Shown here: positions 5,230 through 60,207 of the stretch, in pieces
Numbering within the stretch: the first letter of the stretch is position 1
Layout: every line of letters starts with the position of its first letter
Assembly (NCBI GenBank): GCA_034670145.1
Contig: JAXMOA010000021.1
Location: 6,240 to 70,239, forward strand
DNA length: 64,000 nucleotides
Direction of reading: 5' to 3'
Origin: Marinibacterium sp.
Lineage (GTDB): Bacteria > Pseudomonadota > Alphaproteobacteria > Rhodobacterales > Rhodobacteraceae
Notes under the pieces: generated by a model
The model's database searches: none
What the model was told of the DNA's origin: nothing
The model's input: only the letters and a program-made list of their open reading frames with translations
Made by a program: the position numbers and the translations under genes

Positions 5230-5631
5230 GCCAAACCTTTGACCCAAACGGCGATGACGCCAAACCGGCTGGCTCTGGATTGGCCCCCTCCAGCAGGCCA
5301 AAACGCTTCGCCGCATTTGGATACATCACAACCTTGCGACCGATTTGTCCCGCATCGCACACCCGCCAATAGCGCAGCAAACCGCGCACGCCGCTACGGC
5401 ACAACACGCGCGACATTCCCGATTCACATCATTCCTCAAGAAAATAAGCCATTTTTCGTGCATCTAGGACAATATCGACCGGGTTATCATCTAAACAGAT
5501 GATGACCAAGACCGCCCCAAAACCTAGTTTTCCAACGTACAATCACCAGTTCGTGGATGTGCGCCTGTTCAGAATTGCCCTCGCAAGAAGAGCCCCAGGC
5601 CAGCATCCCATACCGCGAGAAAGAGTAAAAC

Positions 5632-6606
5632 ATGGCAAAGACGTTAGACAAACTCAGCAAGGAAGCAAAGAAACTTGACAAGGGTGTCCATGACCTGCGG
5701 AGCGTGTTGCAGTCACTGGATATGCAGAATGAGACACTGCGGAAACACATGCACGAAACTGCGGTGATCGCCGGACTAGCCGCCGTAGACCTAAAAGCCA
5801 AAGGTCATACCGGCCAGAAAATGTCCGATTTCAAATCTGACAAATCGGTGGCCAGCGCTATGAAGATCTTAAGCGAACGAACGAAGCTGGCAAACAAAGA
5901 AAATGCCAAGCTTCTGGCCAGTCGCAAGACCCTGATCCAAACACACGAAGATCTGACGAGGATTGCAAAAGAGCTTGGCGAAGAAATTACAAAAAGAAAA
6001 AAGAAGTCTTCCCGAAAGCTCTTCAAAATTCAATCTGACAGTTTGCCTGGTTTGGAGGCTCTCAAAAAATCGGTGGACGAAAGTGTCAAAACGGCAATCA
6101 CCCTCTTTAACGACTACACGGCTTTGATTAAAAATAAACCCTTCGAATACGAAACCTATTTGAATAAGGTATTTTCCGATACGCTGAGCGACCCGACAAA
6201 AGATAAAAACAAATTTGATATTTCACATACATTTGTTCAAAACAAGAGAACTCAAAACGTGTATCTTAAAAAAACAGCGAAACTTCTGATTGAAACCAAA
6301 AAGCTTTGCGATACAGCAGTAAAGAAGGCAAAAGCCCAAGAAAGCCACAGCGCTGAAATGGATGCAGCAGCAAATTGCTATCGTGAGATCCTCAAAATGA
6401 AGAAACTGTTGGCCAAAGTGAAGGAGAGCGCAACAAAAGAGGTTAACCAGGGCAAGAAAAATGGGATCAAGGAACAAGAGAAACGGGGTTTGTTGGCAAT
6501 CGCATCAATGGACAAGATCCTTGCTGTAGAGCAAGGAATCAAAAAAACCTTGGCCAAGGCGACACAGCAAACCTTTATCGAAAAGCAGAAAGCATCGGTT
6601 ACTTGA
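5632..6606 (+). CDS. hypothetical lysine-rich, predicted all-helical/coiled-coil protein
   Basis: 324-aa ORF with 58 Lys by my count (18 %), heptad-like charged pattern, no signal peptide or TM. Lies in a visibly AT-rich patch. I recognise no family. Confidence 0.6.
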   Translation: MAKTLDKLSKEAKKLDKGVHDLRSVLQSLDMQNETLRKHMHETAVIAGLAAVDLKAKGHTGQKMSDFKSDKSVASAMKILSERTKLANKENAKLLASRKTLIQTHEDLTRIAKELGEEITKRKKKSSRKLFKIQSDSLPGLEALKKSVDESVKTAITLFNDYTALIKNKPFEYETYLNKVFSDTLSDPTKDKNKFDISHTFVQNKRTQNVYLKKTAKLLIETKKLCDTAVKKAKAQESHSAEMDAAANCYREILKMKKLLAKVKESATKEVNQGKKNGIKEQEKRGLLAIASMDKILAVEQGIKKTLAKATQQTFIEKQKASVT

Positions 6607-6700
6607 CAAGTAAGAGTGCAATCAGTTGCATGGTGCAATACAGTTTCTGACATCTGCCTGATCGCCTCGGGGTTTTGGTACACGGCATTGGTTCAACATC

Positions 6701-8443
6701 ATGAGCGACAAAGAACAAGACATCGTCAAAGAGCTGTATGCGCTTGTCGCTGAACCTCATCGATACGATGCGTTCATGTATGATCTGAGCCAGCGCCTTG
6801 AGAGCCTGAAGGAAGATCACGACGAAACAGATCATGCAGCTTTGCTCACACATATCGACCATGCCTCATCGCTGGTCGATATTGTGACCCCTTGGCGATA
6901 TGCGATTGATGATGATCTGCGTGAGATTTTGGACCGAAAGATCCACGCTGCAATGGCCATCAATACGGCGGGCGAAATTATTGACGCCAATTCCAGTGCC
7001 AAATACCTATACGACCTGCAGTCTGGTCAATATGCCAATGAATTGCCTTTGTCCGGCCCCTCTGAAACGGGATTTCCTGATATCGTTCGTCAGGCTTTCC
7101 CAGACCACTACAAAAGAAACAACCCGAACAATATTTTCAGGTTTACAGACACCCGAAGCGGCAAGCCGGTTCTCGTCACCACAGAAACCTATGAAAGCAT
7201 GGCCACCCAAGCCCAGGTCGTCATTGTCCAAACCAGTGATTTTGCCTGGCCCGCATATTTGGGGCCCATTCTGAAGGATCTATTCAGCCTGACCCAGGCC
7301 GAGATTGATATCCTTCAACTGGTCGTAGAAGGGTTTAAAGTATCTGAAATTCGCACGCGCCGCGGAGCCAGCGAAGCAACGGTTCGCAGTCAGCTTTCAG
7401 CCATATTTCAAAAAACCGGCGTCGGCTCGCAGGTAGAATGCATTCGCATGGTCATGGGGCTGTCGATGCTACATGATGCCAACCAGGGCCGTGCCATCGC
7501 CAGTGAACTGGAGGCGAGCCAAGGCCCCAGCTACTTTCCACGCTCGCATCAACGCAGGGTCCTGACCCTGGAGAATAAGCGCACGATCGAATACTCCGTA
7601 TTCGGTGCCAAGGACGGCGACGTCTTGCTGTTCTATCACTGTCAGGTCTTTGGCGACTCATGGTTCCAGGGCGCCGTCGATGCTGCACACCGCGCCGGCC
7701 TGCAAATCATTGCCCCACTACGCCCGGGTTTCGGTCAGACCACCGTCTACTCAGGCAAATATAGCGATCCACACATTTTTGCGGCGGATATCGAAGCTCT
7801 GCTGGATCATTTGAATGTCAACCGCGCCTCAATCCTGAGTGTCAGCAGCGGGCTGGTCCACGCTTTGGCCGCCGTCCATCGAATGCCTGGGCGGTTCACA
7901 GGCATCAGCGCGACCCATCCAATCTTGCCGGTGCTCACGACCGAGGATCTGGAAGGAACAAATGGCTATAACTACCTCATCCCTCACGCACGATTACGGT
8001 TCCCTCCGGCGTTGAAACTGATGTGTCGCGCTGGCTTTGCCTTTGTGCAAACAGCGGGTGTTGCTGCTTTCCTGCGCGCCTTGCTTCGTTCCGCTCCAAA
8101 AGACGTGGAATGGGCGATGCGTCCAGATGTCTTCCCGGTTCTGGAGTGGGGAACGGGTATCCATGCCAATCAGGGATATGTCGGAAACCTGGGCGATATC
8201 AGCTATTCAGAGAACTGGTTGACGCCTTTGACAGAATGCTCGGTCCCCATTCGTCTGGTGATCGGTGAACATGACCGAAACGTCCCCTGGGCCGCCGCGA
8301 AACGGCATGCAAAAGAGCAAGACCACATCAGCCTTCATATCTTACAAGACAGCGGATATCTGGTCCATCATCAGCAAGGCCGACAACTGGTCCGCTGGGC
8401 CGCTGCGGAGCTAGCGGACGAGCCTATAGCCTTCGAAGGTTAA
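6701..8443 (+). CDS. LuxR-type HTH protein with N-terminal PAS-like region and C-terminal alpha/beta-hydrolase domain
   Basis: Central LuxR/GerE HTH (aa 197-252: LTQAEIDILQLVVEGFKVSEIRTRRGASEATVRSQLSAIFQKTGV). The C-terminal about 290 aa are alpha/beta-hydrolase-like with nucleophile-elbow variant SVSSG (aa 380-384). Confidence 0.75.
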   Translation: MSDKEQDIVKELYALVAEPHRYDAFMYDLSQRLESLKEDHDETDHAALLTHIDHASSLVDIVTPWRYAIDDDLREILDRKIHAAMAINTAGEIIDANSSAKYLYDLQSGQYANELPLSGPSETGFPDIVRQAFPDHYKRNNPNNIFRFTDTRSGKPVLVTTETYESMATQAQVVIVQTSDFAWPAYLGPILKDLFSLTQAEIDILQLVVEGFKVSEIRTRRGASEATVRSQLSAIFQKTGVGSQVECIRMVMGLSMLHDANQGRAIASELEASQGPSYFPRSHQRRVLTLENKRTIEYSVFGAKDGDVLLFYHCQVFGDSWFQGAVDAAHRAGLQIIAPLRPGFGQTTVYSGKYSDPHIFAADIEALLDHLNVNRASILSVSSGLVHALAAVHRMPGRFTGISATHPILPVLTTEDLEGTNGYNYLIPHARLRFPPALKLMCRAGFAFVQTAGVAAFLRALLRSAPKDVEWAMRPDVFPVLEWGTGIHANQGYVGNLGDISYSENWLTPLTECSVPIRLVIGEHDRNVPWAAAKRHAKEQDHISLHILQDSGYLVHHQQGRQLVRWAAAELADEPIAFEG

Positions 8444-45437: not shown

Positions 45438-47603
45438 TCACAGATCCAGGACAAGTTTCTTTGTCCTGGAGCGTGAACAGCACACGGAAATCTGCCGATT
45501 TGCAGCCTTTTCCAGATCGGTCTGCACCAGATCACGGTGATCAGGCATGCCCTCGACCACCCCGGTCAAACAGGTGCCGCACACGCCTGACTGGCAGGAC
45601 ACTTGCACATGGATGCCATTGTCCTCCAATTTCTGCGCAATGGTCTCGCCCGGCTGCACCTCAAAACTTTTGCCAGAGCTTCGGGCAACGACGGTAAATG
45701 GCGCCCCATCCGTGTTCACCTCTGCCCCAAAGCGTTCCAGATGGATACAGGCCGCATCCCAACCCGCGCGTTCCGCTGCATGCACGACAAAATCCATGAA
45801 ACCATTCGGCCCACAAACATAAAGGTGCTGATCCGCCGCCGCCCTCGCCAACACCCCGTCGATATCCAACTGCTGGTCCTTTGGCCCGCTATCCACATGA
45901 ATCTGAACCCTGCCGCCAAACCGGGCCAACTCCCCGGCAAAGGCCAGACGATCAGCGCTGCGCCCGCAATAATGCATCTCCCAGGACGCCCCCGCCGCTT
46001 CCAGCGCATAGGCCATACTCAGCATCGGCGTGACCCCGATCCCGCCCGCAAACAGAACCGTATGCGCCGCATCCCACTGCACCGGGAAATTGTTGCGAGG
46101 CCGCCCGACCCTGATCTGCCGACTCAGCTCAAAATCCGCGTGGATCGCCGTTGACCCACCCCGAGATTTGGGATCCAGCAATATGCCCAACCGATAGCTG
46201 GAGCCATCCGCCGGATCACCCGTCAATGAATACTGACGGATCAGGCCGGACTTGACATAGACATCCACATGCGCGCCGGCGTCATGTTCAGGCAAGGGGC
46301 TGCCATCAACGGATGCCAGCTTCAAAGAGATAATATCCGTCGCCACATCTTCGCGCTGCGTCACCACCACATCAAGCCACGGAGCCGCCGCAGGCTCGGC
46401 CAGCGCCGCGTGCGTGTCAGGCCGGACGTCAGCGGCCAGATGCACTTTGACTGGCATGACCGAATAGGCGCGAATCGTGTTGTTCATGGCCACAACCGGT
46501 TCGCCCAGCAATTCAAACCGCGTCACCCGGCGGCACAGCGCCTCCAGCAACAGGATGATCTCTCGACGCGCCAGATGCATCCCCATGCACATGTGCACCC
46601 CCTGACCAAAGCCGAGATGGTCATGCACATCGCGTGTGACATCAAACCGATCGGGATCCGCAAATTTGCGTTCGTCCCGGTTGGCCGAAGCATAGATCAC
46701 AATCACCCGCTTGCCCGCCGGTATCACATGACCGGCAATTTCACTGTCTTCGATGACATACCGCGTAAAGGCGCGGATAGGGGTGGCCATCCGCACCGCC
46801 TCATCCACCGCATTCGGAATCAGCCCCGGATCGGCGCGGATCAGATCCCATTGCGCGGGGTGATCCGCCAGAAACTTGATGATCTGACCGGTCGCAGAGA
46901 TCGTCGTATCCAGCGACGGGTTGATATAATCCCTCATCAACTGCGCGCAGGTCTCAAAGGAAATGCCACGCTCTGCACCAACCTCGAAAATCCGCTTGGC
47001 CCATCCGCCTTCGTTCAGCTTTTCGGGGCGGCCATATTCCTGCAAAAAGTCCCGCAGATCCACCAGATCTTCAAAGGCTTGCGCCGTCCGCGCATTCCGC
47101 GTTCCAAACAGGTTGAACGTAGCCGAAGCCCATTTCAACATCTGATCGGACTCCACCGGCAAACCCACCAGTTCGGCAACAATGGTAACAGGCAGATACT
47201 GCGCAAAATCAGAAATCGCATCAAATTCGCCCCGGGCGCAAAGCACATCAATCAACCCATTGGCCGACTGCGCAAGCACAGGCTCAATGGCCTTCAGCGC
47301 ACCAGGCAACAGCGGCTCCGAGGTGACCGAACGTGTCCTGTCATGCTCTGGCGGATCCGAATTCAACGTAGAGCCCACCAGAATATCATTCACCTCCGGT
47401 ATCGGAGAAACGCCACGCGAACTGACAAACCGCAGCGGTTGGCGCAACACTTCGCTCACCTCTGCATAGCGCGGCAGCGCATAAAGGTCGTGCTGGGGCA
47501 AATACACCACCGGACCCAGTTCCCGCATCTGCGCATAGACCGGGTAAGGGTCCAGAATAACGGCGTCAGAGTAAAAATCGATGTCCAGCGACGGAATGCT
47601 CAT
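45438..47603 (-). CDS. self-sufficient cytochrome P450 fused to a phthalate-oxygenase-reductase-like (flavin/NADH/[2Fe-2S]) domain (CYP116B-like architecture)
   Basis: Heme-thiolate loop FGQGVHMCMGMHLARRE in the N-terminal about 400 aa. C-terminal FNR-like region and plant-type ferredoxin CQSGVCGTC...C. Confidence 0.85.
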   Translation of the reverse strand: MSIPSLDIDFYSDAVILDPYPVYAQMRELGPVVYLPQHDLYALPRYAEVSEVLRQPLRFVSSRGVSPIPEVNDILVGSTLNSDPPEHDRTRSVTSEPLLPGALKAIEPVLAQSANGLIDVLCARGEFDAISDFAQYLPVTIVAELVGLPVESDQMLKWASATFNLFGTRNARTAQAFEDLVDLRDFLQEYGRPEKLNEGGWAKRIFEVGAERGISFETCAQLMRDYINPSLDTTISATGQIIKFLADHPAQWDLIRADPGLIPNAVDEAVRMATPIRAFTRYVIEDSEIAGHVIPAGKRVIVIYASANRDERKFADPDRFDVTRDVHDHLGFGQGVHMCMGMHLARREIILLLEALCRRVTRFELLGEPVVAMNNTIRAYSVMPVKVHLAADVRPDTHAALAEPAAAPWLDVVVTQREDVATDIISLKLASVDGSPLPEHDAGAHVDVYVKSGLIRQYSLTGDPADGSSYRLGILLDPKSRGGSTAIHADFELSRQIRVGRPRNNFPVQWDAAHTVLFAGGIGVTPMLSMAYALEAAGASWEMHYCGRSADRLAFAGELARFGGRVQIHVDSGPKDQQLDIDGVLARAAADQHLYVCGPNGFMDFVVHAAERAGWDAACIHLERFGAEVNTDGAPFTVVARSSGKSFEVQPGETIAQKLEDNGIHVQVSCQSGVCGTCLTGVVEGMPDHRDLVQTDLEKAANRQISVCCSRSRTKKLVLDL

Positions 47604-52495: not shown

Positions 52496-52778
52496 GTGGG
52501 GGCCCATCGCGGCTCTGCCATCATCAAACATGCGCGGGCAAGGCACAGCCACCCGGCCATATGCCGCCCGCAAAGGATCCAGGCACCTGCACGCTATTCG
52601 AACCCTTGTAAAACATGATCACTACAAGCGGCTGAGGAGGCCAGCGAAAACCTCTGGCCTCAACGATTTGCAGCCAAACGCACGAAAACGACAGCTTTGA
52701 AACCAAAGAGGTGATATCACTCCACAACGGACCGGCACGTCGGTCACGCTCCTCCAACAGTTTGCAAAGGTGTACCGA

Positions 52779-53330
52779 ATGATCGAAGTCTATTCGATGC
52801 CAAACGCGTTCACCGCTGGAGAATGTGACAGGATTATCGCGACAACGGCCAAACGGCGCGCCAAAGAAGCCCTGTTGGTCGGTCAACAGCGCAATCACAA
52901 CCTGCGCCAGGCCGAACTGGTTTGGCTCGATGATGTTGATGGCATGGGCTGGGTAATGGACCGGCTGATCGAACTGGTGAGCAATTCCAACAAGGATCTG
53001 TTTGACTTCGATCTGCGCGAATTTGCAGAAAGCCCCCAGATCGCCTGTTACCAATCCTCCAACGCCGGTCATTTCGCATGGCATTCAGATATCGGTGACG
53101 GGGTCGCCGCAGGCCGACGAAAATTGACATTGGTCCTGCAATTGAGCCGACCCGCCATGTACGAGGGCGGCAATCTGGAAATGATGCCAAATGCCCATAT
53201 CGTCACCGCCAACCGGGCGCAGGGCTGCGCCAGTATCTTTCCCAGCTTTTCACTTCATCAGGTCACCCCGGTGACCAGCGGCGTGCGCCATTCGTTGACC
53301 GTTTGGGCCCATGGCCCTGCCTTTCGCTAA
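52779..53330 (+). CDS. 2OG-Fe(II) oxygenase, prolyl-4-hydroxylase-like small type
   Basis: HxD (WHSDIGDG), distal His and Arg (LHQVTPVTSGVRHSLTVW), RKLTLVLQLS block. ATG 52779 is preferred over GTG 52770. Confidence 0.75.
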   Translation: MIEVYSMPNAFTAGECDRIIATTAKRRAKEALLVGQQRNHNLRQAELVWLDDVDGMGWVMDRLIELVSNSNKDLFDFDLREFAESPQIACYQSSNAGHFAWHSDIGDGVAAGRRKLTLVLQLSRPAMYEGGNLEMMPNAHIVTANRAQGCASIFPSFSLHQVTPVTSGVRHSLTVWAHGPAFR

Positions 53331-53394
53331 ACCAAAATCTCGCGCGGGCCAAAGAGCGGCCTTCCCCGCTGGCATCCAATCCAGGAAAACAGAC

Positions 53395-53676
53395 ATGACA
53401 GAAGAAAATGAAACCGGCGCAATCGTGCATTACATCTGCCAGACATATGTTGAGCAGAAAGGCACCCGAGGCAAACCATCGGGTCTCAAAATCGGAAAAC
53501 AACTCCAATACACAACCGCCAGAGAGGCCGAAAACCGTGCAGAACGCGAACTGCGGTCCGAAGGTTGCATCGGCGTCGACGCCTATATGATTGTAGAAGA
53601 TCCAGCCTCCGGAGAAGTCGGCGATCCAACCTTTCTTGTCCGATTGGGAAACGTCCCTGACGATGATGCGTCCTGA
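53395..53676 (+). CDS. hypothetical small protein (93 aa)
   Basis: ATG 53395 (MTEENETGAIVHYICQTYVEQKG...). Composition is protein-like and it is co-directional with its neighbours. I recognise no family. Confidence 0.45.
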   Translation: MTEENETGAIVHYICQTYVEQKGTRGKPSGLKIGKQLQYTTAREAENRAERELRSEGCIGVDAYMIVEDPASGEVGDPTFLVRLGNVPDDDAS

Positions 53677-53884
53677 GCTCACTTCAGCGACACCATCCGC
53701 GCTCAATTGCTGCTAAGCCGCGCGAATGGTTTATGCTACCGGCCTTTCCCCTCTTGGGGTCACATACACAAAATTGCGGAACTGGCGCCGTATTGTGACC
53801 CGACAAGGCAGTTGCTGTTGCCAGTCAGGTCTTTTGTACGCAGTCTACAAGGGCCAACCAGATTGGCGCATAGGGAGAGAGACC

Positions 53885-54664
53885 ATGAAAAACAGTGTAC
53901 TTGTCGGCGCGCTTTCACTCACCAATTTTTGTCTTTTCACCACCTCTGCCTTGGCGAACTGGACCTACAATGGACCGCCCTATCCAAATGCCTCTATTCA
54001 AACCAACGACATGACCCTGGCGGTGCAATGCGACAGGATCAGGTTCGCTCCTGCAGGGTATGAGGATTCGCAGGACATTGTGCAAAAGAACGGCCTTACC
54101 TTTCGGTTTCTGGCAAACGGTTCGCAGGAGGCAGCGTCTTTCCAGCTGGGACGCGAAAACGCGTTCGTCCAGATCGTCGACAACTATCCCGTGGAGATCC
54201 AGTTCAGCGATCAGGCAGATTATGCGTTCGTCCTCGACCAGATTGCTGCAAACGCCACCTTGAACCTCTCGATGGTCGATCAAGACGTCAGCTACGGTAT
54301 TTTTGACCTCAAGGGATCGAGTGCAGCCATCCAATCACTCCGGGCCGAATGTGGTGCATCAGCCCAAACTTCCGTGCCGATGGAAGCGCCAGAGGGCGTG
54401 GTTTATTGTGGTGGCGATGGCATCAAACGGCAAATCGAGTTCGTGATCCTCGATGATGCCACCGATGAGTGGGATGCGCGAGTCACCGCGAACGGCGAAA
54501 CACAGCGGGCAATGACCTCCTACAGCTATTTCGGCAACTCCGAACCGGTAAAGGATTTCGTGGTTGCCTTGCTGGCCGAGGATCGATCCGAGTTTCTGAT
54601 CTTCCGCAGCAAGAATGAAAACTGGCTGGAATTCGGAGATTACAGGTACGACCAATGCAACTGA
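53885..54664 (+). CDS. hypothetical secreted protein (259 aa)
   Basis: ATG 53885 gives signal peptide MKNSVLVGALSLTNFCLFTTSALA|NW. I recognise no family. Confidence 0.6.
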   Translation: MKNSVLVGALSLTNFCLFTTSALANWTYNGPPYPNASIQTNDMTLAVQCDRIRFAPAGYEDSQDIVQKNGLTFRFLANGSQEAASFQLGRENAFVQIVDNYPVEIQFSDQADYAFVLDQIAANATLNLSMVDQDVSYGIFDLKGSSAAIQSLRAECGASAQTSVPMEAPEGVVYCGGDGIKRQIEFVILDDATDEWDARVTANGETQRAMTSYSYFGNSEPVKDFVVALLAEDRSEFLIFRSKNENWLEFGDYRYDQCN

Positions 54665-55182
54665 CAAAAACACCCAGCCATAAATCCCAGCCCAATCAAA
54701 GCCTCACCCTCCTGTGCAGCCTGCTGTTTGCCACGGCGGCAACCCTGTCGTCCCCGGCCCTTGCTTCGCAGATATCCGAGCTACCGGCGCCGCTGCAACA
54801 AAAGGTGGATCAGGGCCAACAGGCCTGCTCTGACTTCGAAAACGGCACGTTCACGTTGGAGTGGGGCGCTGTGACCCGTGTGGACCTCGACGGAGATCTG
54901 CGACCAGACTGGGCCCTGAACGAGGCGTTCTTCACCTGCTCGTCAGCCGCGTCCCTCTATTGTGGCACGGGCGGATGCATGTCGCATTTCCTGGTGGGCG
55001 ACACGCTCTCCTCTGTACTCAACCGAGGTTGGGATGTCGTGGATCTTGGCCCCAACCGAGTGCTTCTGACGGACGTCCACGGATCGCAATGTGGCGGCAT
55101 CAACCCAACGCCCTGCGTCACGACCAGCACCTGGGACACTCAGACCGCCCAATGGCGCAGCGCCGTGACCGCGTGGGAATGA
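54655..55182 (+). CDS. hypothetical secreted Cys-containing protein (175 aa)
   Basis: Signal peptide ...LLCSLLFATAATLSSPALA|SQ. Mature part carries several Cys (CSDFENG, FTCSS, YCGTGGC, CGGINPTPC). Start overlaps the upstream stop by 10 nt. Confidence 0.6.
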   Translation: MQLTKTPSHKSQPNQSLTLLCSLLFATAATLSSPALASQISELPAPLQQKVDQGQQACSDFENGTFTLEWGAVTRVDLDGDLRPDWALNEAFFTCSSAASLYCGTGGCMSHFLVGDTLSSVLNRGWDVVDLGPNRVLLTDVHGSQCGGINPTPCVTTSTWDTQTAQWRSAVTAWE

Positions 55183-55384
55183 AACGCTGAATGCCCCCTG
55201 CGCACATCCCCCCAACGCGACCGGGCTGCCCCCCAATGAAGTGGTTCACCTCCATAGTTGGGCAAGCGCGCCAATCGCCTTTGGAATGCTGTCTATTGTT
55301 GCAGTTTGGTTCACGTAAGGATTGTGATACAAACGTCAAAACCTATCTATTTTTAAGGCGACTCTGTAGAAACAAGGAGGCGTA

Positions 55385-58300
55385 TTGGTAATGTCAGGTT
55401 CGACGTATTATTTCTATTGGACAAACGGCGACGACACGTACTGGGGCTACACCTATGACGCGGACGAGTCGCAGGGTTTGTCTTTGGACTATCAAGTCGA
55501 CGTCACCGACGAACATGGGGCCGCTGCGTATTTCTATGTGACGGACGTGGTCAGTGGCGATGCAGAGAACCTGGGGACGGACGCAGACGATCGGACCGCT
55601 CTGACCCAGTATTATGACTCTCTGACCGGCAACTACGATGTTCCTTCTTTGTATGCCGTCAGAGGCTGGTCCATCCCGGCGAGTTCCTCTGTCGGTGGCA
55701 TGCTGGCGACCTCTGACACTGTGAATTTAGGAGTTTCCGGCAATGAGGAGGGGCGTTTTGGCTACAACACCTCCACCGGCTATTATGAAGAGGCCAATGG
55801 TCAGCCTGACGCAACCACCTACCATTTCTACTGGACCAATGGTGACGATCACTTTTACGGGTATATCTACGATGCAGATGGGTCCCAGGGCCTGTATGTC
55901 GGTTACACATATGAACTGAATGACGAAAACGGCCTGCCCAGCTCATACAGGGTTTTCGACAGCGAAGCAGGCAATGTTTACGAGCTGTCCGACGATGCCG
56001 GACGTTTCACCAATTACTATGACGCAGAGTCGGACACGACGGTCACCTCTTTCAGGTACTCTGGGGCCAGGGTGGATCCATATGACTACTTCAATTCCAG
56101 TGGTTCCGAAACAGGTACCATGGAATCCAGCACGGCCTATGCTTGGCGGACGTTGGGCGAATTTGGTGAGGTGCTTACTGTAGGCCTGTTTGGGGCCGGC
56201 TATGAGGCGGATGATCCAAGTCTGGGCGATGTCCAGCACTACACGCATTATTTCTACTGGTACAACGGCACCGATTCATTTCGCGGCTACACCTATGACC
56301 AAAATGAATCCCAGGGGCTTTACGAAGGATACCGCTTTACCTCTACGGATGAAACCGGCGCTTCGGGTTACTATTACGTTTATGAAAGCGTGCTGGGCAA
56401 TGCAGAGGGGCTGTTGGACGATTACGTTGCCTTCACCTTCTATTACGACGGTGAAATCGAACAATATGATTACGACCCCTATTACACCACGCTCAATGGC
56501 TATGCGGGCACGGCCGGCATGCTCGCAGCGCTGGACTATGTGGATTTTGGCGATGGCGACCTGCTGGACGGAGAGTTCGGCTATTACGGCTATTACGAAG
56601 CTGAGGCGTCCAACGGCTTAACCTATGCCTATTTCTGGTCGAACGGGTACGATATGTACTACGGGTATACGTTCGATGATGACGGGTCACAGGGCCTGTC
56701 GGTTGGCTATACCTATTCGTCCACGGATGAAAACGGGCTGTGGGGCTATTACTATGTCTACAGCACCACCTTCAACAACACCTACAATCTGGACGAAGAC
56801 GGGGCCTTTCATCTGTTCTATTATGACGGTGAAACCGGGGCTTATGATTATGATCCGCTGCTGAGCACCGAAGACGGGCAGGCGGCCGGGTCAGGCATGC
56901 TGGGGTCGTTCGATTATGTGGATTTCGGCAATGGCGGTTATGCGGGTGGCGATTATGGGTACTACGGATATTTCGAGGCCGATGATCAGAACCTGTCTGG
57001 CACCACCTATGCCTACTACTGGTACAACGGGTTTGATTGCTACTACGGGTACACCTTTGATTCTGATGGCTCGCAGGGCCTTTATGATGGCTATCTGCAT
57101 TACACGACCGATGAAAACGGCCTGAGCGGGTATTACTACGTTTACAGCTCGACCGATCAGAACAGCCATCTGCTGACCGAAGACGCGGCCTTTCACGACT
57201 ATTATTACGACTATGCCACCGACACCTACGACTGGGACCCGTATTATTCGGACGGGGCCGGTTACGCCTATGGCACGGGTATGCTGGGGTCTTATGACCG
57301 GGTTGATTTTGACAACGGCGACTATACCGAGGGGACCTATGGTGACTACGGCTATTACGAGGCCGAGAATGTCGAAGAAGGGTTCACATTTTATTACTAC
57401 TGGACCAACGGCTATGACAGCTATCGCGGCTACACATTCGACCTGGACGGCTCGCAAGGGCTGTATGAGGGGTATCAGTATGATGCGACGGATGAGAACG
57501 ACTATGCCGGGTTCTACTATGTGGACGCGGCCGAGCATGGGGACGTTGAGGGGCTGGGCGGCGATGACCTGGTCGCGCATCAGTACTATTATGACTATGA
57601 AACAGGGCTGTTTGACCTTGATCCGGTACTGACCACAACCGATGGACATGCGGCCGGGTATGGCATGCTGGACTCATACGACTACGTCGAATTTGACGAT
57701 GGGGATTACATCACCGGTCTCTACGGCGCCCATGGCTATTACGAAGCGGACGAATACGGGGCCACTTATTACTACTATTGGATCGATGGCGACGGGCAAG
57801 ACTACTACTACGGCTACACCTTTGACGGAGATGGCTCACAGGGGCTGTACGCCGGGTATGTCTGGTCTGTGGATGACAGCCAATACGCCGACGATGACCA
57901 TAGCGGGTATTACTATGTCTACGAGGCAGTCTACGGGAACCCAAATGGTCTGCTCGAAGACTATGCCGTTCATCAAAGCTACTATGACTACGAATCCAAT
58001 CAGTATGACTATGACCCGGAATATACGACGCTCTACGGCGAGGCCTATGGGTCAGGCATGATCCAATCCTATGACCGGGTGGATTTTGACGATGGAGATT
58101 ATACGGGCGGCGACTACGGAAATTATGGCGGCGAGGCTGAAAATGAAACCGGGCCCGGTACAACCTATTCCTATATCTGGTCCAACGGGTATGACTATTA
58201 CTATGGCCACGTCTATGACTACTATGGCGACAGTTCCGGACTGTATGTGGGCTACACTGTCGATGCGATAGAGGAAAACGGTCTCGACTCATACTATTAC

Positions 58301-58558
58301 GTCTACAGCGCCACGGGTGGGAGCCCCTATCAGCTGGATCATAACCAGGCCGTTCACACCCATTATTACGACTATGAGACAGGTCAGATTGACTATGAGC
58401 CCTACCATAGCACGGTCTTGGGATATGCCCTTGGGGCCGGGATGACGGGTTCTTATGATTACGTCGACTTTGGTAGCGGCGACCATGATACTTCGGGCTA
58501 CGACACTCTCTACGGCTATGATTATTATCAGGGCATCATATATGAGGCGGACGCCTAG
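55385..58558 (+). CDS. hypothetical 1,057-aa lysine-free, Tyr/Asp/Gly-rich protein made of eight tandem about 130-aa repeats
   Basis: Strong AAGGAGG at 55374-55380 (TTG 55385 or ATG 55391). The eight-repeat structure is conserved at protein level through synonymous codon differences. Candidate terminator lies about 150 nt downstream. Confidence 0.8.
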   Translation: MVMSGSTYYFYWTNGDDTYWGYTYDADESQGLSLDYQVDVTDEHGAAAYFYVTDVVSGDAENLGTDADDRTALTQYYDSLTGNYDVPSLYAVRGWSIPASSSVGGMLATSDTVNLGVSGNEEGRFGYNTSTGYYEEANGQPDATTYHFYWTNGDDHFYGYIYDADGSQGLYVGYTYELNDENGLPSSYRVFDSEAGNVYELSDDAGRFTNYYDAESDTTVTSFRYSGARVDPYDYFNSSGSETGTMESSTAYAWRTLGEFGEVLTVGLFGAGYEADDPSLGDVQHYTHYFYWYNGTDSFRGYTYDQNESQGLYEGYRFTSTDETGASGYYYVYESVLGNAEGLLDDYVAFTFYYDGEIEQYDYDPYYTTLNGYAGTAGMLAALDYVDFGDGDLLDGEFGYYGYYEAEASNGLTYAYFWSNGYDMYYGYTFDDDGSQGLSVGYTYSSTDENGLWGYYYVYSTTFNNTYNLDEDGAFHLFYYDGETGAYDYDPLLSTEDGQAAGSGMLGSFDYVDFGNGGYAGGDYGYYGYFEADDQNLSGTTYAYYWYNGFDCYYGYTFDSDGSQGLYDGYLHYTTDENGLSGYYYVYSSTDQNSHLLTEDAAFHDYYYDYATDTYDWDPYYSDGAGYAYGTGMLGSYDRVDFDNGDYTEGTYGDYGYYEAENVEEGFTFYYYWTNGYDSYRGYTFDLDGSQGLYEGYQYDATDENDYAGFYYVDAAEHGDVEGLGGDDLVAHQYYYDYETGLFDLDPVLTTTDGHAAGYGMLDSYDYVEFDDGDYITGLYGAHGYYEADEYGATYYYYWIDGDGQDYYYGYTFDGDGSQGLYAGYVWSVDDSQYADDDHSGYYYVYEAVYGNPNGLLEDYAVHQSYYDYESNQYDYDPEYTTLYGEAYGSGMIQSYDRVDFDDGDYTGGDYGNYGGEAENETGPGTTYSYIWSNGYDYYYGHVYDYYGDSSGLYVGYTVDAIEENGLDSYYYVYSATGGSPYQLDHNQAVHTHYYDYETGQIDYEPYHSTVLGYALGAGMTGSYDYVDFGSGDHDTSGYDTLYGYDYYQGIIYEADA
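55403..58555 (+). repeat. eight in-frame tandem coding repeats (378-426 bp each)
   Basis: Repeat units start at 55403, 55817, 56243, 56621, 57005, 57386, 57764 and 58163, each beginning T-[YHF]-x-[FY]-[YFI]-W. Unit lengths of 138, 142, 126, 128, 127, 126, 133 and 131 aa, plus a 6-aa leader, sum to 1,057. Confidence 0.9.
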
Positions 58559-58707
58559 CGTCCGGATTCATGGCCAACAGATGACGATTGCCTAAAAAGC
58601 GATCGCTGAAAGGAAGACCTTGGGGCAGCGCGCATATCGGGTTGCCACAGACCGCTAATCCTAGAGTCTGCCAAACATGATTTCGATCCGTTTGCGCGGT
58701 TTTCGGC

Positions 58708-58738
58708 CGGGGGTTCATGCATGAACCACCCCGGTTTT
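58708..58738 (+). terminator. candidate intrinsic terminator of the repeat-protein gene
   Basis: Core GGTTCA-tgca-TGAACC extended by G/C pairs with one bulge (ccggggGTTCATGCATGAACcaccccgg), followed by TTTT (58735-58738). Confidence 0.5.
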
Positions 58739-59181
58739 GCCAAAGACTGCTAAGTACGTATTTCTCCTCCACTTCGATCTTTGTGATGTAGCCTGGAGGC
58801 ACAGGCAGGCGCTCCTGGTTGAGCCAATCGCCCGATTGCAAGGTTTCCCATTCGACCTTGATCCTCCCCCACCGAATTGGTCCGCGCCCTTGGTTAGGCA
58901 ACGGAGGATCGGCAGAGCAATTGCCGGTTCCCACGCTCAAGCTCCCCGAGACGCGCCCGTTCCGCTGTCGTCACGTCATCACGCTTAAACATGCCCACGC
59001 TTTGGACACCAGATGCAGACGGCGAGGTTCACTTCGAATACATATTGCGAGCGCCAGATCAGCGCGATGCATCCTCGGAAATCGAAATTCCAGAAAGAAT
59101 TATACAGCAATGGACGAAAAGAAGGGACACTAGACCGCACCAAGACAGATACCAAAGTGCGCCACGCTTTCAAAAAAACCG

Positions 59182-60207
59182 TTAGCTTCTTCTGGCAATT
59201 GTATTCGCGATGATCGAGAGAAGAAGGCCAAGAGTGAAATATCCCAAGACAACTTCGCTGATAACAAGAATTTCTCCGTAAACGTTTTCGGCTGTGACGT
59301 CACCATATCCCAGCGTCGTGTATGTCACCAACGAGACGTAGAAAGGCGTAAACCAGCTCTGCGCAGAGTTGGAGTAATCCATCATCCCCCACCCTAGACG
59401 CATATCGAATAAGTAAATAACTCCGTAAAAAGTTGCGAGAATTAAGGCGTAAATGCCAACCTTTAGAAGACTTCGGCCATGATCAAAAAGCCCCCAGACC
59501 CTGAAAAGGACGGCCTCAAGTGACTTTGAAAAGCCCTTGGGCATCTCTGAAATCGAGGTTTCAAGTGTGTCTATATAATCTTGATCCTTTGCGTCGCGCA
59601 CAAAAAGCGCATTTCCATAAACAGAATCCAAACCCCGAATGCCCTGGTAACACCCACTCATGTCTTTAAAGCCGCCGTAGACAATTCCTGTCACATTCGC
59701 TCCTTCCAATCGAGCGGTCCGGAGGTACGCTCCGGCCACATTCGCGCGCTCCAGGCAGGCCTCACGAAGGTCGGCTTTCGCCAAGTTTGCGTTGCGCAGA
59801 TCCGCTCCGGTCAGGTCCACGCCAACAAGGTCAGCTCCTCGCAAATCCGCATATGTCAGGTCAGCCTCCGTCAAGTCCGCGCCCTTGAGGTTTACTCCTG
59901 TCATCGTGGCTGAGGTGAGTTTCGCCTTATACAGTCCGGCCAGCGACGCATTTGCGCCCGAAAGATCGGCCTTGGCCATATTGGCGTGTTTCAAGTTCGC
60001 AGATGACAAGTCTGCCTCGAAGAAATCGGCATCGGCAAGGTCATATCCGGACAGGTTTTGACCTGATAGGTCGGTGCCAGAAAGATCCGCACCAGCAAGA
60101 ACAAACGATGTGTCAGGATTCTGCGCCAAGAAACTCTCCCAGTCTGCAGAACCGCTTTTGAGGGCGCAAAGCGCCGCTTCAGTATCTAGATTGGGTTTGT
60201 TGGCCAT
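59182..60207 (-). CDS. pentapeptide-repeat domain fused to a 2-TM K+-channel pore domain
   Basis: aa about 36-175 are A(D/N)LxX pentapeptide repeats (ADLSGTDLSGQNLSGYDLADADFFEADLSSANL...). The C-terminus has TM1, pore helix and selectivity filter TTLGYGD (aa 297-303, nt 59299-59319), then TM2. Confidence 0.85.
   Translation of the reverse strand: MANKPNLDTEAALCALKSGSADWESFLAQNPDTSFVLAGADLSGTDLSGQNLSGYDLADADFFEADLSSANLKHANMAKADLSGANASLAGLYKAKLTSATMTGVNLKGADLTEADLTYADLRGADLVGVDLTGADLRNANLAKADLREACLERANVAGAYLRTARLEGANVTGIVYGGFKDMSGCYQGIRGLDSVYGNALFVRDAKDQDYIDTLETSISEMPKGFSKSLEAVLFRVWGLFDHGRSLLKVGIYALILATFYGVIYLFDMRLGWGMMDYSNSAQSWFTPFYVSLVTYTTLGYGDVTAENVYGEILVISEVVLGYFTLGLLLSIIANTIARRS

Follow-up and report, generated by a model that had tools for sequence, protein, structure and literature searches.

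Introduction

RTX repeats are the usual hallmark of the large substrates of type I secretion systems, and type I signals are uncleaved, reside in the last 50-60 residues and follow no reliable sequence consensus. Large non-RTX or repeat substrates of these systems are known, and a report on Ehrlichia describes the tandem-repeat proteins TRP47, TRP120 and TRP32 as users of type I secretion (PMC3417381). The exoproteomes of Roseobacter are, according to two reports, dominated by type-I-secreted proteins (PMC3933643, PMC2953401), and in Xanthomonas oryzae the tyrosine-sulfated peptide RaxX is exported by a type I system in which RaxST, RaxA and RaxB take part (PMC6637879, PMC4646787). Here, we describe a gene for a tyrosine-rich, lysine-free repeat protein (55391..58558, forward strand) in a stretch of 64,000 nt from Marinibacterium sp. 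(Rhodobacteraceae; contig JAXMOA010000021.1), which is called the window in the following. Judged from a confident structural model, the repeat represents an undescribed domain family with no detectable fold relative in PDB or BFVD, and we consider it reasonably probable that the protein is a type-I-secreted extracellular chain of this new domain with a role in multivalent binding, adhesion or matrix formation.

An acidic repeat exoprotein that probably uses type I secretion is of a known kind; the domain itself is new. The protein is similar to serralysin/AprA-type and other RTX exoproteins in being very acidic and poor in cysteine, in lacking an N-terminal signal peptide and in carrying its array to the C-terminus. 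The similarity extends to its relatives (homologous proteins are labelled P0001 and onward, and homologous loci L001 and onward), since P0004, P0006 and P0014 are serralysin-like M10 proteases with Peptidase_M10_C and RTX regions, and the gene for P0006 is located beside PrtD/HlyD genes. Unlike the RTX exoproteins, however, the tyrosine-rich protein has neither GGxGxD nonapeptides nor a match to PF00353, its repeat is a globular unit of 125 aa rather than a beta-roll, and no secretion genes are present in the window. The HExxHxxGxxH zinc site and the Peptidase_M10 and Peptidase_M10_C domains of the serralysins (M10B) are also absent from it.

The adhesins of the LapA, MpIBP and SiiE-like types offer a second comparison, as they also consist of tandem, beta-rich beads of about 100-130 aa, are acidic, are linked to type I secretion and have a probable role in adhesion or matrix formation. 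Distant members of the new family contain cadherin-like and He_PIG domains. In contrast to these adhesins, the tyrosine-rich protein gave no match to BIg or cadherin families in Pfam and no Foldseek match to Ig-like or cadherin structures, lacks both an RTX block and a retention module at the N-terminus, and contains 18% Tyr and no Lys. With the Ehrlichia proteins it shares a strongly acidic tandem-repeat sequence without RTX motifs. The repeats of the Ehrlichia proteins are short and disordered, whereas each repeat of the tyrosine-rich protein is modelled as a confidently folded domain of 125 aa, and the two are unrelated in sequence. The abundance of Tyr and Asp in a repetitive bacterial protein is also reminiscent of the Rhs/YD-repeat proteins, but no match to RHS_repeat or YD-repeat families was obtained at E-values up to 1, the period is about 125 instead of about 20 aa, and there is neither a shell architecture nor a toxin tip.

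A Lysine-Free Protein of Eight Tandem Repeats

The frame 55385..58558 on the forward strand is open over 1057 codons plus a stop codon and follows a Shine-Dalgarno sequence, AAGGAGG, that can be read at 55374..55380, in agreement with an earlier note prepared from the letters of this DNA. The same note had divided the frame into a leader of 6 aa and eight repeats. All eight repeat starts are indeed in frame, with repeat lengths of 126-142 aa, but the leader before repeat 1 is more likely to be 4 aa. The start codon is most likely the ATG at 55391, which yields a protein of 1055 aa that ends at the TAG stop codon at 58556-58558, rather than the alternative TTG at 55385, which would yield 1057 aa. 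This choice is based on the spacing to the Shine-Dalgarno sequence, which is 10 nt for the ATG and 4 nt for the TTG, and on the resulting N-terminus, MSGSTYYFYW, which is the same as that of P0001, a homolog with 79% identity.

Searched with a profile of repeats 3-8, the protein yields precisely eight domains. The six repeats that went into the profile score between 148 and 179 bits: repeat 3 (56243..56620, 126 aa, 175 bits), repeat 4 (56621..57004, 128 aa, 179 bits), repeat 5 (57005..57385, 127 aa, 178 bits), which contains the only Cys, repeat 6 (57386..57763, 126 aa, 169 bits), repeat 7 (57764..58162, 133 aa, 159 bits) and repeat 8 (58163..58555, 131 aa, 148 bits), for which the match extends to the last residue of the C-terminus, ..QGIIYEADA. 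The lower scores of repeat 1 (55403..55816, 138 aa, 79 bits) and repeat 2 (55817..56242, 142 aa, 71 bits) are explained by their diverged second halves; repeat 2 also has an insertion and matches well only at profile positions 1-75. Both the divergence of these two repeats and the consensus of repeats 3-8 had been described before, and the latter agrees with the consensus of a MAFFT alignment. The repeats are joined by short acidic linkers of the type ..YEADDxxxGT.

The amino acid composition is extreme, with no Lys, 13 Arg and 1 Cys next to 193 Tyr (18%), 149 Gly and 133 Asp. A recount returned the values for Lys, Arg and Cys that the earlier note had given, as well as its count of 23 Tyr among the 128 residues of repeat 4. 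The isoelectric point (pI) is computed as 4.05, the mass as about 119.5 kDa and the net charge as about -180, so that the protein is as acidic as had been anticipated. Other open reading frames (ORFs) in the window contain on average 3.4% Lys and 2.0% Tyr, and a protein of 1055 residues would be free of Lys with a probability of about 1e-16. Asp or Glu is located within 5 residues of 164 of the 193 Tyr and directly adjacent to 71 of them. No hydrophobic segment is present in the protein (the maximum Kyte-Doolittle mean over 19 residues is 0.76), a regular-expression search for GG.G.D and GG.G.[DN] returned 0 matches, and neither a lipobox nor a signal peptide is visible by inspection and hydropathy at the N-terminus, MSGSTYYFYW, which has no hydrophobic core. 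These results bear out the stated absence of a signal peptide, a transmembrane segment, RTX nonapeptides and a lipobox.

Comparisons between the repeats gave proportions of synonymous differences (pS) of 0.66-0.89, which means that synonymous sites are saturated, and proportions of nonsynonymous differences (pN) of only 0.27-0.38. Furthermore, Tandem Repeats Finder saw no repeat at the DNA level. The eight repeats are therefore old and have been kept by purifying selection on the protein, as had been proposed from the motif DGSQGLY. This motif, in the form DGSQGL(Y/S), is written with different synonymous codon strings among the repeats, and the codon variants quoted earlier for DGSQGLY were exact.

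A Confidently Predicted Domain Without Detectable Fold Relatives

No family could be recognized for the repeat when it was first noticed, and this was also the outcome of the searches performed here. Neither the whole protein nor one repeat matched any Pfam or NCBIfam family at E-values up to 1, and neither the whole protein nor a profile of 42 repeats matched any PDB sequence at E-values up to 10. Matches to Rhs/YD, beta-propeller, cadherin or RTX families, any of which would have contradicted the claim of novelty, were not obtained, and no description of the family was found in literature searches.

An AlphaFold2 model of repeat 4, based on the alignment of 42 repeats, has a predicted local distance difference test score (pLDDT) of 94.5 and a predicted template modelling score (pTM) of 0.87, and all five models have a pLDDT of at least 92. 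The predicted domain is mostly beta: six main strands pair up as three hairpins, and the part after them is less regular and contains two short helices along with short strands. Fifteen of the 23 Tyr are placed in predicted beta strands, where Tyr makes up one third of all residues. Since the strands contain consecutive aromatic runs (YAYFW, YYGYTF, GYYYVY), both faces of the sheets would be aromatic. A Foldseek search with this model identified no neighbor in PDB (best E-value 1.1, with TM-scores of at most 0.21 among the top matches) and none in BFVD (best E-value 0.31).

We also modelled repeats 4 and 5 jointly. The pLDDT stays at 92.4 in the two-repeat model, while the pTM drops to 0.57, and the model thus portrays the protein as a chain of independent beads, the domains of which have no fixed mutual orientation.

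Rarity and Domain Architectures of the Relatives

Members of the family are extremely rare. Six proteins were retrieved when 5.8 billion clusters were searched by a word-indexed method, a second search of this type with the repeat profile added one fragment only, and an exhaustive profile search with HMMER yielded 31 clusters among 1.84 billion representatives at E-values of at most 0.001, of which 15 had E-values of at most 1e-10. The homologs that the earlier note wished to see traced are thus neither common nor characterized. A pattern scan with an alignment of 7 repeats against the 185,579 species representatives in GTDB gave 75 pattern matches, which is about the number that we estimate to occur by chance, and 0 were confirmed. 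In comparison, a scan of JGI metagenomes produced one confirmed locus, and because the same procedure was able to confirm this locus, the negative result for GTDB looks real for the close subfamily.

This subfamily is made up of P0001, P0002, P0003 and P0005 plus fragments. These proteins contain 5-10 repeats and nothing else, start directly with a repeat and have no signal peptide. Directly upstream of the gene for P0002 (900-4733), the first 88 positions of the contig in locus L001 encode the C-terminus (..YYEADDA, followed by a stop codon) of another repeat protein, which indicates that some genomes hold tandem paralogs. P0004 and P0006 contain a PPC domain, an M10 protease domain with the motif HEIGHALGLGH, Peptidase_M10_C (PF08548) and then 5 or 2 repeats at the C-terminus; PF08548 was also identified in P0014 and PF00413 in P0016. 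More distant members combine the module with RTX repeats, Cadherin_3, Peptidase_M10(_C) or matrixin, CBM96, NIDO, C-type lectin, GH17, a ConA-like (GH43_C2) domain or He_PIG/Calx-beta, and several of them bear Sec signal peptides. The domain partners of the module, as assigned by these family matches, are all of extracellular type. A core with the motifs GDyYxG, DENG, YYDxE, G..ylGS and yEAD is common to the whole family, and D11, D19 and D21 are among the invariant residues of the repeat. The array extends to the very end of about 20 family proteins, with 0-6 residues past the EAD motif.

The Lys content is 0-0.3% and the Tyr content 17-22% in the close subfamily, whereas distant members contain up to 7% Lys. 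Lysine avoidance thus characterizes the marine alphaproteobacterial subfamily and not the domain. P0004 and P0006 contain only 0.2 and 0.1% Lys across their whole length, the PPC and M10 catalytic domains included, and the bias therefore belongs to the exported proteins of this group in these organisms and not to the repeat alone. That lysine avoidance serves as resistance to trypsin-like proteases or as avoidance of amine chemistry is speculation.

The fusion partners also bear on what the module may do. Each repeat could be a new lectin-like unit in which exposed Tyr stack on sugars, so that the whole protein would be a multivalent array for algal or bacterial polysaccharides. Aromatic-rich strands with aromatic residues on both sheet faces would suit such a function, and so would the distant fusions to GH17, CBM96, the ConA-like GH43_C2 domain, C-type lectin and NIDO, and the location of the module as a C-terminal appendage of secreted enzymes, which is a position typical of binding modules. 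Yet, the repeat resembles no known carbohydrate-binding module in sequence or fold, the closest fusions are to proteases rather than glycosidases, and no genes for polysaccharide utilization adjoin the gene in the window. We regard this as a possibility, albeit not a likely one.

Assembly into an S-layer or another self-assembling surface lattice, exported by a type I system in the manner of RsaA in Caulobacter or SapA in Campylobacter, can be weighed against the same data. The protein is about 1000 aa long, very acidic, almost free of Cys and devoid of a signal peptide, and these traits resemble those of type-I-secreted S-layer proteins; for SapA, a reference is given in PMC2938197. A lattice is nevertheless very improbable, given that the copy number varies from 5 to 10 repeats among close relatives, that the same module is appended to enzymes, that the two-repeat model has no fixed inter-domain geometry, and that there are no RTX motifs.

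Type I Secretion as the Proposed Route of Export

We propose type I export for the tyrosine-rich protein because of the absence of a signal peptide, the extreme acidity, the exclusively extracellular architectures of the fusion proteins, the C-terminal location of the array and the presence of secretion genes beside two relatives. Among the traits of type I substrates, it has an N-terminus without signal-peptide-like hydrophobicity, a pI of 4.05 and 1 Cys. To judge from its position in the sequence, repeat 8 is a candidate for carrying a C-terminal secretion signal that would not be cleaved. In locus L046, the gene for P0006 adjoins genes for a PrtD-type ATP-binding cassette (ABC) transporter (TIGR01842, 634 bits, cut-off 510) and an HlyD adaptor (TIGR01843, 347 bits, cut-off 209), which is the classical alkaline-protease arrangement. 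In the metagenomic locus L048, the repeat gene is located directly downstream of genes for a PrtD-type ABC transporter and an HlyD adaptor (311 bits, above the cut-off), and the recovered part of the protein contains repeats only. Type I secretion had been put forward as a hypothesis in the earlier note, and the genes adjoining these two homologs support it indirectly.

In the mechanism that we envisage, the polypeptide of about 119 kDa, with a net charge of about -180 and no N-terminal signal peptide, would be the export substrate. It would be exported unfolded via a PrtD/HlyD-type type I system encoded elsewhere in the genome and would be recognized by the transporter by way of the repeat or tail at its C-terminus. 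Once exported, each of the eight modules of 125 aa would fold alone into a compact, mostly beta domain, in which Tyr side chains, amounting to one third of the strand residues, would line the core and an exposed face. The short acidic linkers would make the protein a flexible chain in the manner of beads on a string, and this chain would function in multivalent binding, in adhesion or as part of a matrix. In other family proteins, where the module is appended to the C-terminus of secreted proteases, glycosidases and proteins of lectin-like type, its most plausible task is to direct the enzyme to a substrate or surface. Secretion, folding outside the cell, a binding or adhesive role and any dependence on Ca2+ are what we infer for this protein.

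Several observations speak against export by a type I system. The protein contains no RTX repeats, and Pfam/NCBIfam scans of the neighbors and tblastn searches agree that the 64-kb window contains no type I secretion ABC transporter, adaptor or TolC-like gene, as had been stated for type I secretion genes before. Linkage to ABC and HlyD genes was observed in two of five readable loci (L046 and L048) and is absent from the window, from L004 and from the visible part of L001, so that it rests on two relatives only. The ABC transporter in L048 has TIGR01842 as its top match, but its score of 398 bits is below the curated cut-off of 510, and since the 3' end of the repeat gene in L048 is lost at the contig end, an RTX block may follow downstream. 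Finally, some family members use Sec signal peptides, and the domain therefore does not dictate the secretion route.

A protein that stays in the cytoplasm as a storage or aggregation-prone product, or a gene in decay, would account for the lack of a demonstrable secretion signal and of secretion genes in the window. We consider this hardly credible in view of the strong purifying selection on all repeats, the intact frame of 3.2 kb with a good Shine-Dalgarno sequence, the confident predicted fold and the extracellular architecture of every multidomain relative. The explanations that compete with a secreted chain of binding modules differ mainly in molecular function.

Neighboring Genes of the Relatives and Possible Tyrosine Modification

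We compared the gene neighborhoods of the homologs; look-ups by exact sequence retrieved no contigs for the tyrosine-rich protein, P0001 or P0004. The repeat gene for P0002 in L001 is followed by a pair of convergent genes for a TPR+Sulfotransfer_3 protein and an S8 peptidase with a signal peptide (5390-8379). A corresponding convergent pair in L048 (1559-4548), the S8 peptidase of which also has a signal peptide, precedes the ABC and HlyD genes. The sulfotransferases of the two loci are 43% identical and the S8 peptidases 49%, and the pairs come from different organisms and are differently arranged relative to the repeat gene. The longest alignments of the sulfotransferase domain to PDB sequences were obtained with protein-tyrosine sulfotransferases 1 and 2, although the similarity is weak (E-values 0.002 and 0.04). 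The earlier note had named tyrosine modification as a possible role, to which the two loci with a TPR-sulfotransferase point weakly and indirectly; tblastn searches identified no sulfotransferase or S8 peptidase homolog in the 64-kb window, and for the sulfotransferase this was also the result of Pfam/NCBIfam scans of the neighbors.

These loci raise the question of whether the protein is a tyrosine-sulfated polyanion, in which many of the acid-flanked Tyr would be O-sulfated in the cytoplasm by a TPST-like TPR sulfotransferase before type I export, to yield a hyper-anionic matrix component or decoy outside the cell. The co-occurrence of sulfotransferase and S8 genes with a repeat gene in two organisms, in one of which (L048) they are located directly beside the type I ABC and adaptor genes, is in line with this idea, as are the alignments to tyrosine sulfotransferases and the many Tyr with neighboring acidic residues. 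Precedents are provided by raxX-raxSTAB (PMC6637879, PMC4646787) and by predicted bacterial operons in which hydroxylases and sulfotransferases are associated with secreted repeat proteins (PMC2938197). The Rax system is similar in having a PF13469-type sulfotransferase near the substrate gene, as in L001 and L048, together with ABC and adaptor genes, as in L048, and acid-flanked Tyr in the substrate. It differs in that RaxX is a leader-containing peptide of 60 aa exported by RaxB, a transporter with a C39 peptidase, while the substrates in the homologous loci have 600-1300 residues and the transporter is a PrtD-type ABC protein; in addition, the sulfotransferases of the homologous loci have a TPR N-terminus. 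The window contains no gene of this kind, and sulfation is putative. No sulfotransferase or S8 homolog was identified in L004 or L046 either, 15 of the 23 Tyr in repeat 4 are located in beta strands so that many are probably structural, and TPR-sulfotransferases may have other substrates. Taken together, we judge sulfation of the protein to be rather unlikely.

In a more far-reaching version, the repeat would be a new fold that scaffolds type-I-secreted, heavily tyrosine-O-sulfated and possibly hydroxylated polyanionic matrix proteins in marine bacteria, made by a cassette dedicated to them with genes for a TPR-sulfotransferase, an S8 peptidase, an ABC transporter and an adaptor, and this combination as a whole we hold to be doubtful. 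Having hardly any sites for trypsin, such proteins would have gone unnoticed in exoproteomics. If true, bacteria would possess an equivalent of the sulfated proteins in the extracellular matrix of eukaryotes.

Iron-related genes were identified near the repeat gene in three loci: a 2OG-Fe(II) oxygenase in the window, hemP in L001, and genes for DUF2218, a siderophore-interacting protein and a ferric reductase in L004, which contains the gene for P0005 and neither secretion genes nor a sulfotransferase. They invite the suggestion of a metal-binding exoprotein, in which tyrosinate and carboxylate ligands would hold Fe(III) or Ca2+ and which would be expressed with iron-responsive genes. The extreme content of Asp, Glu and Tyr and the family-wide conservation of the acidic motifs GNGD, DENG, YYDxE and EAD would fit such a function. 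However, the neighbors differ for each locus and none has been shown to be co-regulated, no iron box common to the upstream regions of six homologous loci was found, no known metal-binding motif was matched, and acidity is common in the secreted proteins of marine bacteria. We hold a metal-binding exoprotein of this kind to be quite improbable.

A gene with an FGE-sulfatase domain beside the gene for P0006 was set aside as a sulfur-related partner, as it is located with Cu-oxidase and pseudoazurin-type genes, and we take it to be part of a nirK/nirV-type pair. A 2OG-Fe(II) oxygenase cluster upstream of the gene in the window (52770-55182) was examined as a modification operon and discarded, since it is not conserved beside any of the homologs (L001, L004, L046 and L048).

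Genomic Context in the Window

The gene for the tyrosine-rich protein looks monocistronic because it has non-coding DNA on both sides, about 200 nt upstream and about 620 nt downstream. The 14-mer ACAAACGTCAAAAC is located in the upstream intergenic region at 55329..55342 (forward strand), and L049 has an identical copy (520-533) upstream of its homologous gene. It was the sole result of a search for shared motifs upstream of the six homologous loci, occurs only once in the window and is expected by chance with a probability of about 6e-4 for two regions of 300 nt, according to our estimate. This candidate may be a shared cis or regulatory element. Scans for promoters and terminators gave results at chance level. 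An ORF of 134 aa on the other strand (58536-58940) overlaps the 3' end of the gene and has no family match; being situated within the apparently non-coding stretch of 620 nt, it is probably spurious.

The neighbors are ordinary chromosomal genes, which upstream include GcvT, a LysR regulator and the same-strand 2OG-Fe(II) oxygenase cluster. The cluster (52770-55182, forward strand) comprises four genes, led by a YbiX/PKHD-like 2OG-Fe(II) oxygenase and a protein of 121 aa without assignment, which are accompanied by a protein of about 260 aa with a signal peptide when read from an internal Met of ORF 53726-54664, and by a protein of 175 aa with a signal peptide. Directly downstream of the tyrosine-rich gene, 59182-60207 on the reverse strand encodes pentapeptide repeats fused to Ion_trans_2, which is an unusual architecture, and a hybrid histidine kinase is also encoded on this side. 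Recent horizontal transfer was considered and found to be unsupported, as the GC content at third codon positions of the tyrosine-rich gene is 0.64, which is similar to its neighbors, and the lower total GC content is due to its Tyr and Asp codons. A tblastn search of a plasmid collection gave no match, and megablast with 20 kb of the window returned trivial matches only.

Elsewhere in the window, an IlvD-like gene shares 86-90% identity with its counterparts in Ruegeria, Thalassovita, Shimia, Halocynthiibacter and Seohaeicola, which assigns the window to a Roseobacter-group member of the Rhodobacteraceae. An ORF of 324 aa (5632-6606, forward strand) has 17.9% Lys, a GC content of 0.43 compared to 0.57 for the window, a coiled-coil-like appearance and no Pfam match, and may be a foreign gene. 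Two fusion proteins were also observed, of which one joins a LuxR-type HTH to an alpha/beta hydrolase domain (6701-8443, forward strand, 580 aa) and the other a cytochrome P450 to DmmA-like and 2Fe-2S ferredoxin domains (45438-47603, reverse strand, 721 aa).

Implications

Only six tryptic peptides of 7-35 residues can be derived from the tyrosine-rich protein, covering 132 of its 1055 residues, and standard trypsin-based exoproteomics of Roseobacter-group bacteria would therefore overlook it. Demonstrations of bacterial protein tyrosine sulfation are, to our knowledge, essentially confined to Xanthomonas to date, and the family described here is a test case both for such modification and for type I substrates without RTX repeats. 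The extracellular domain that defines it has not been described before; with a structure predicted at high confidence and no relative detectable by fold, the family is well suited to experimental structure determination and to a new Pfam entry. Its extreme composition raises the questions of how such a chain folds, how it resists aggregation and oxidation, and what its tyrosine-lined surface would bind in seawater.

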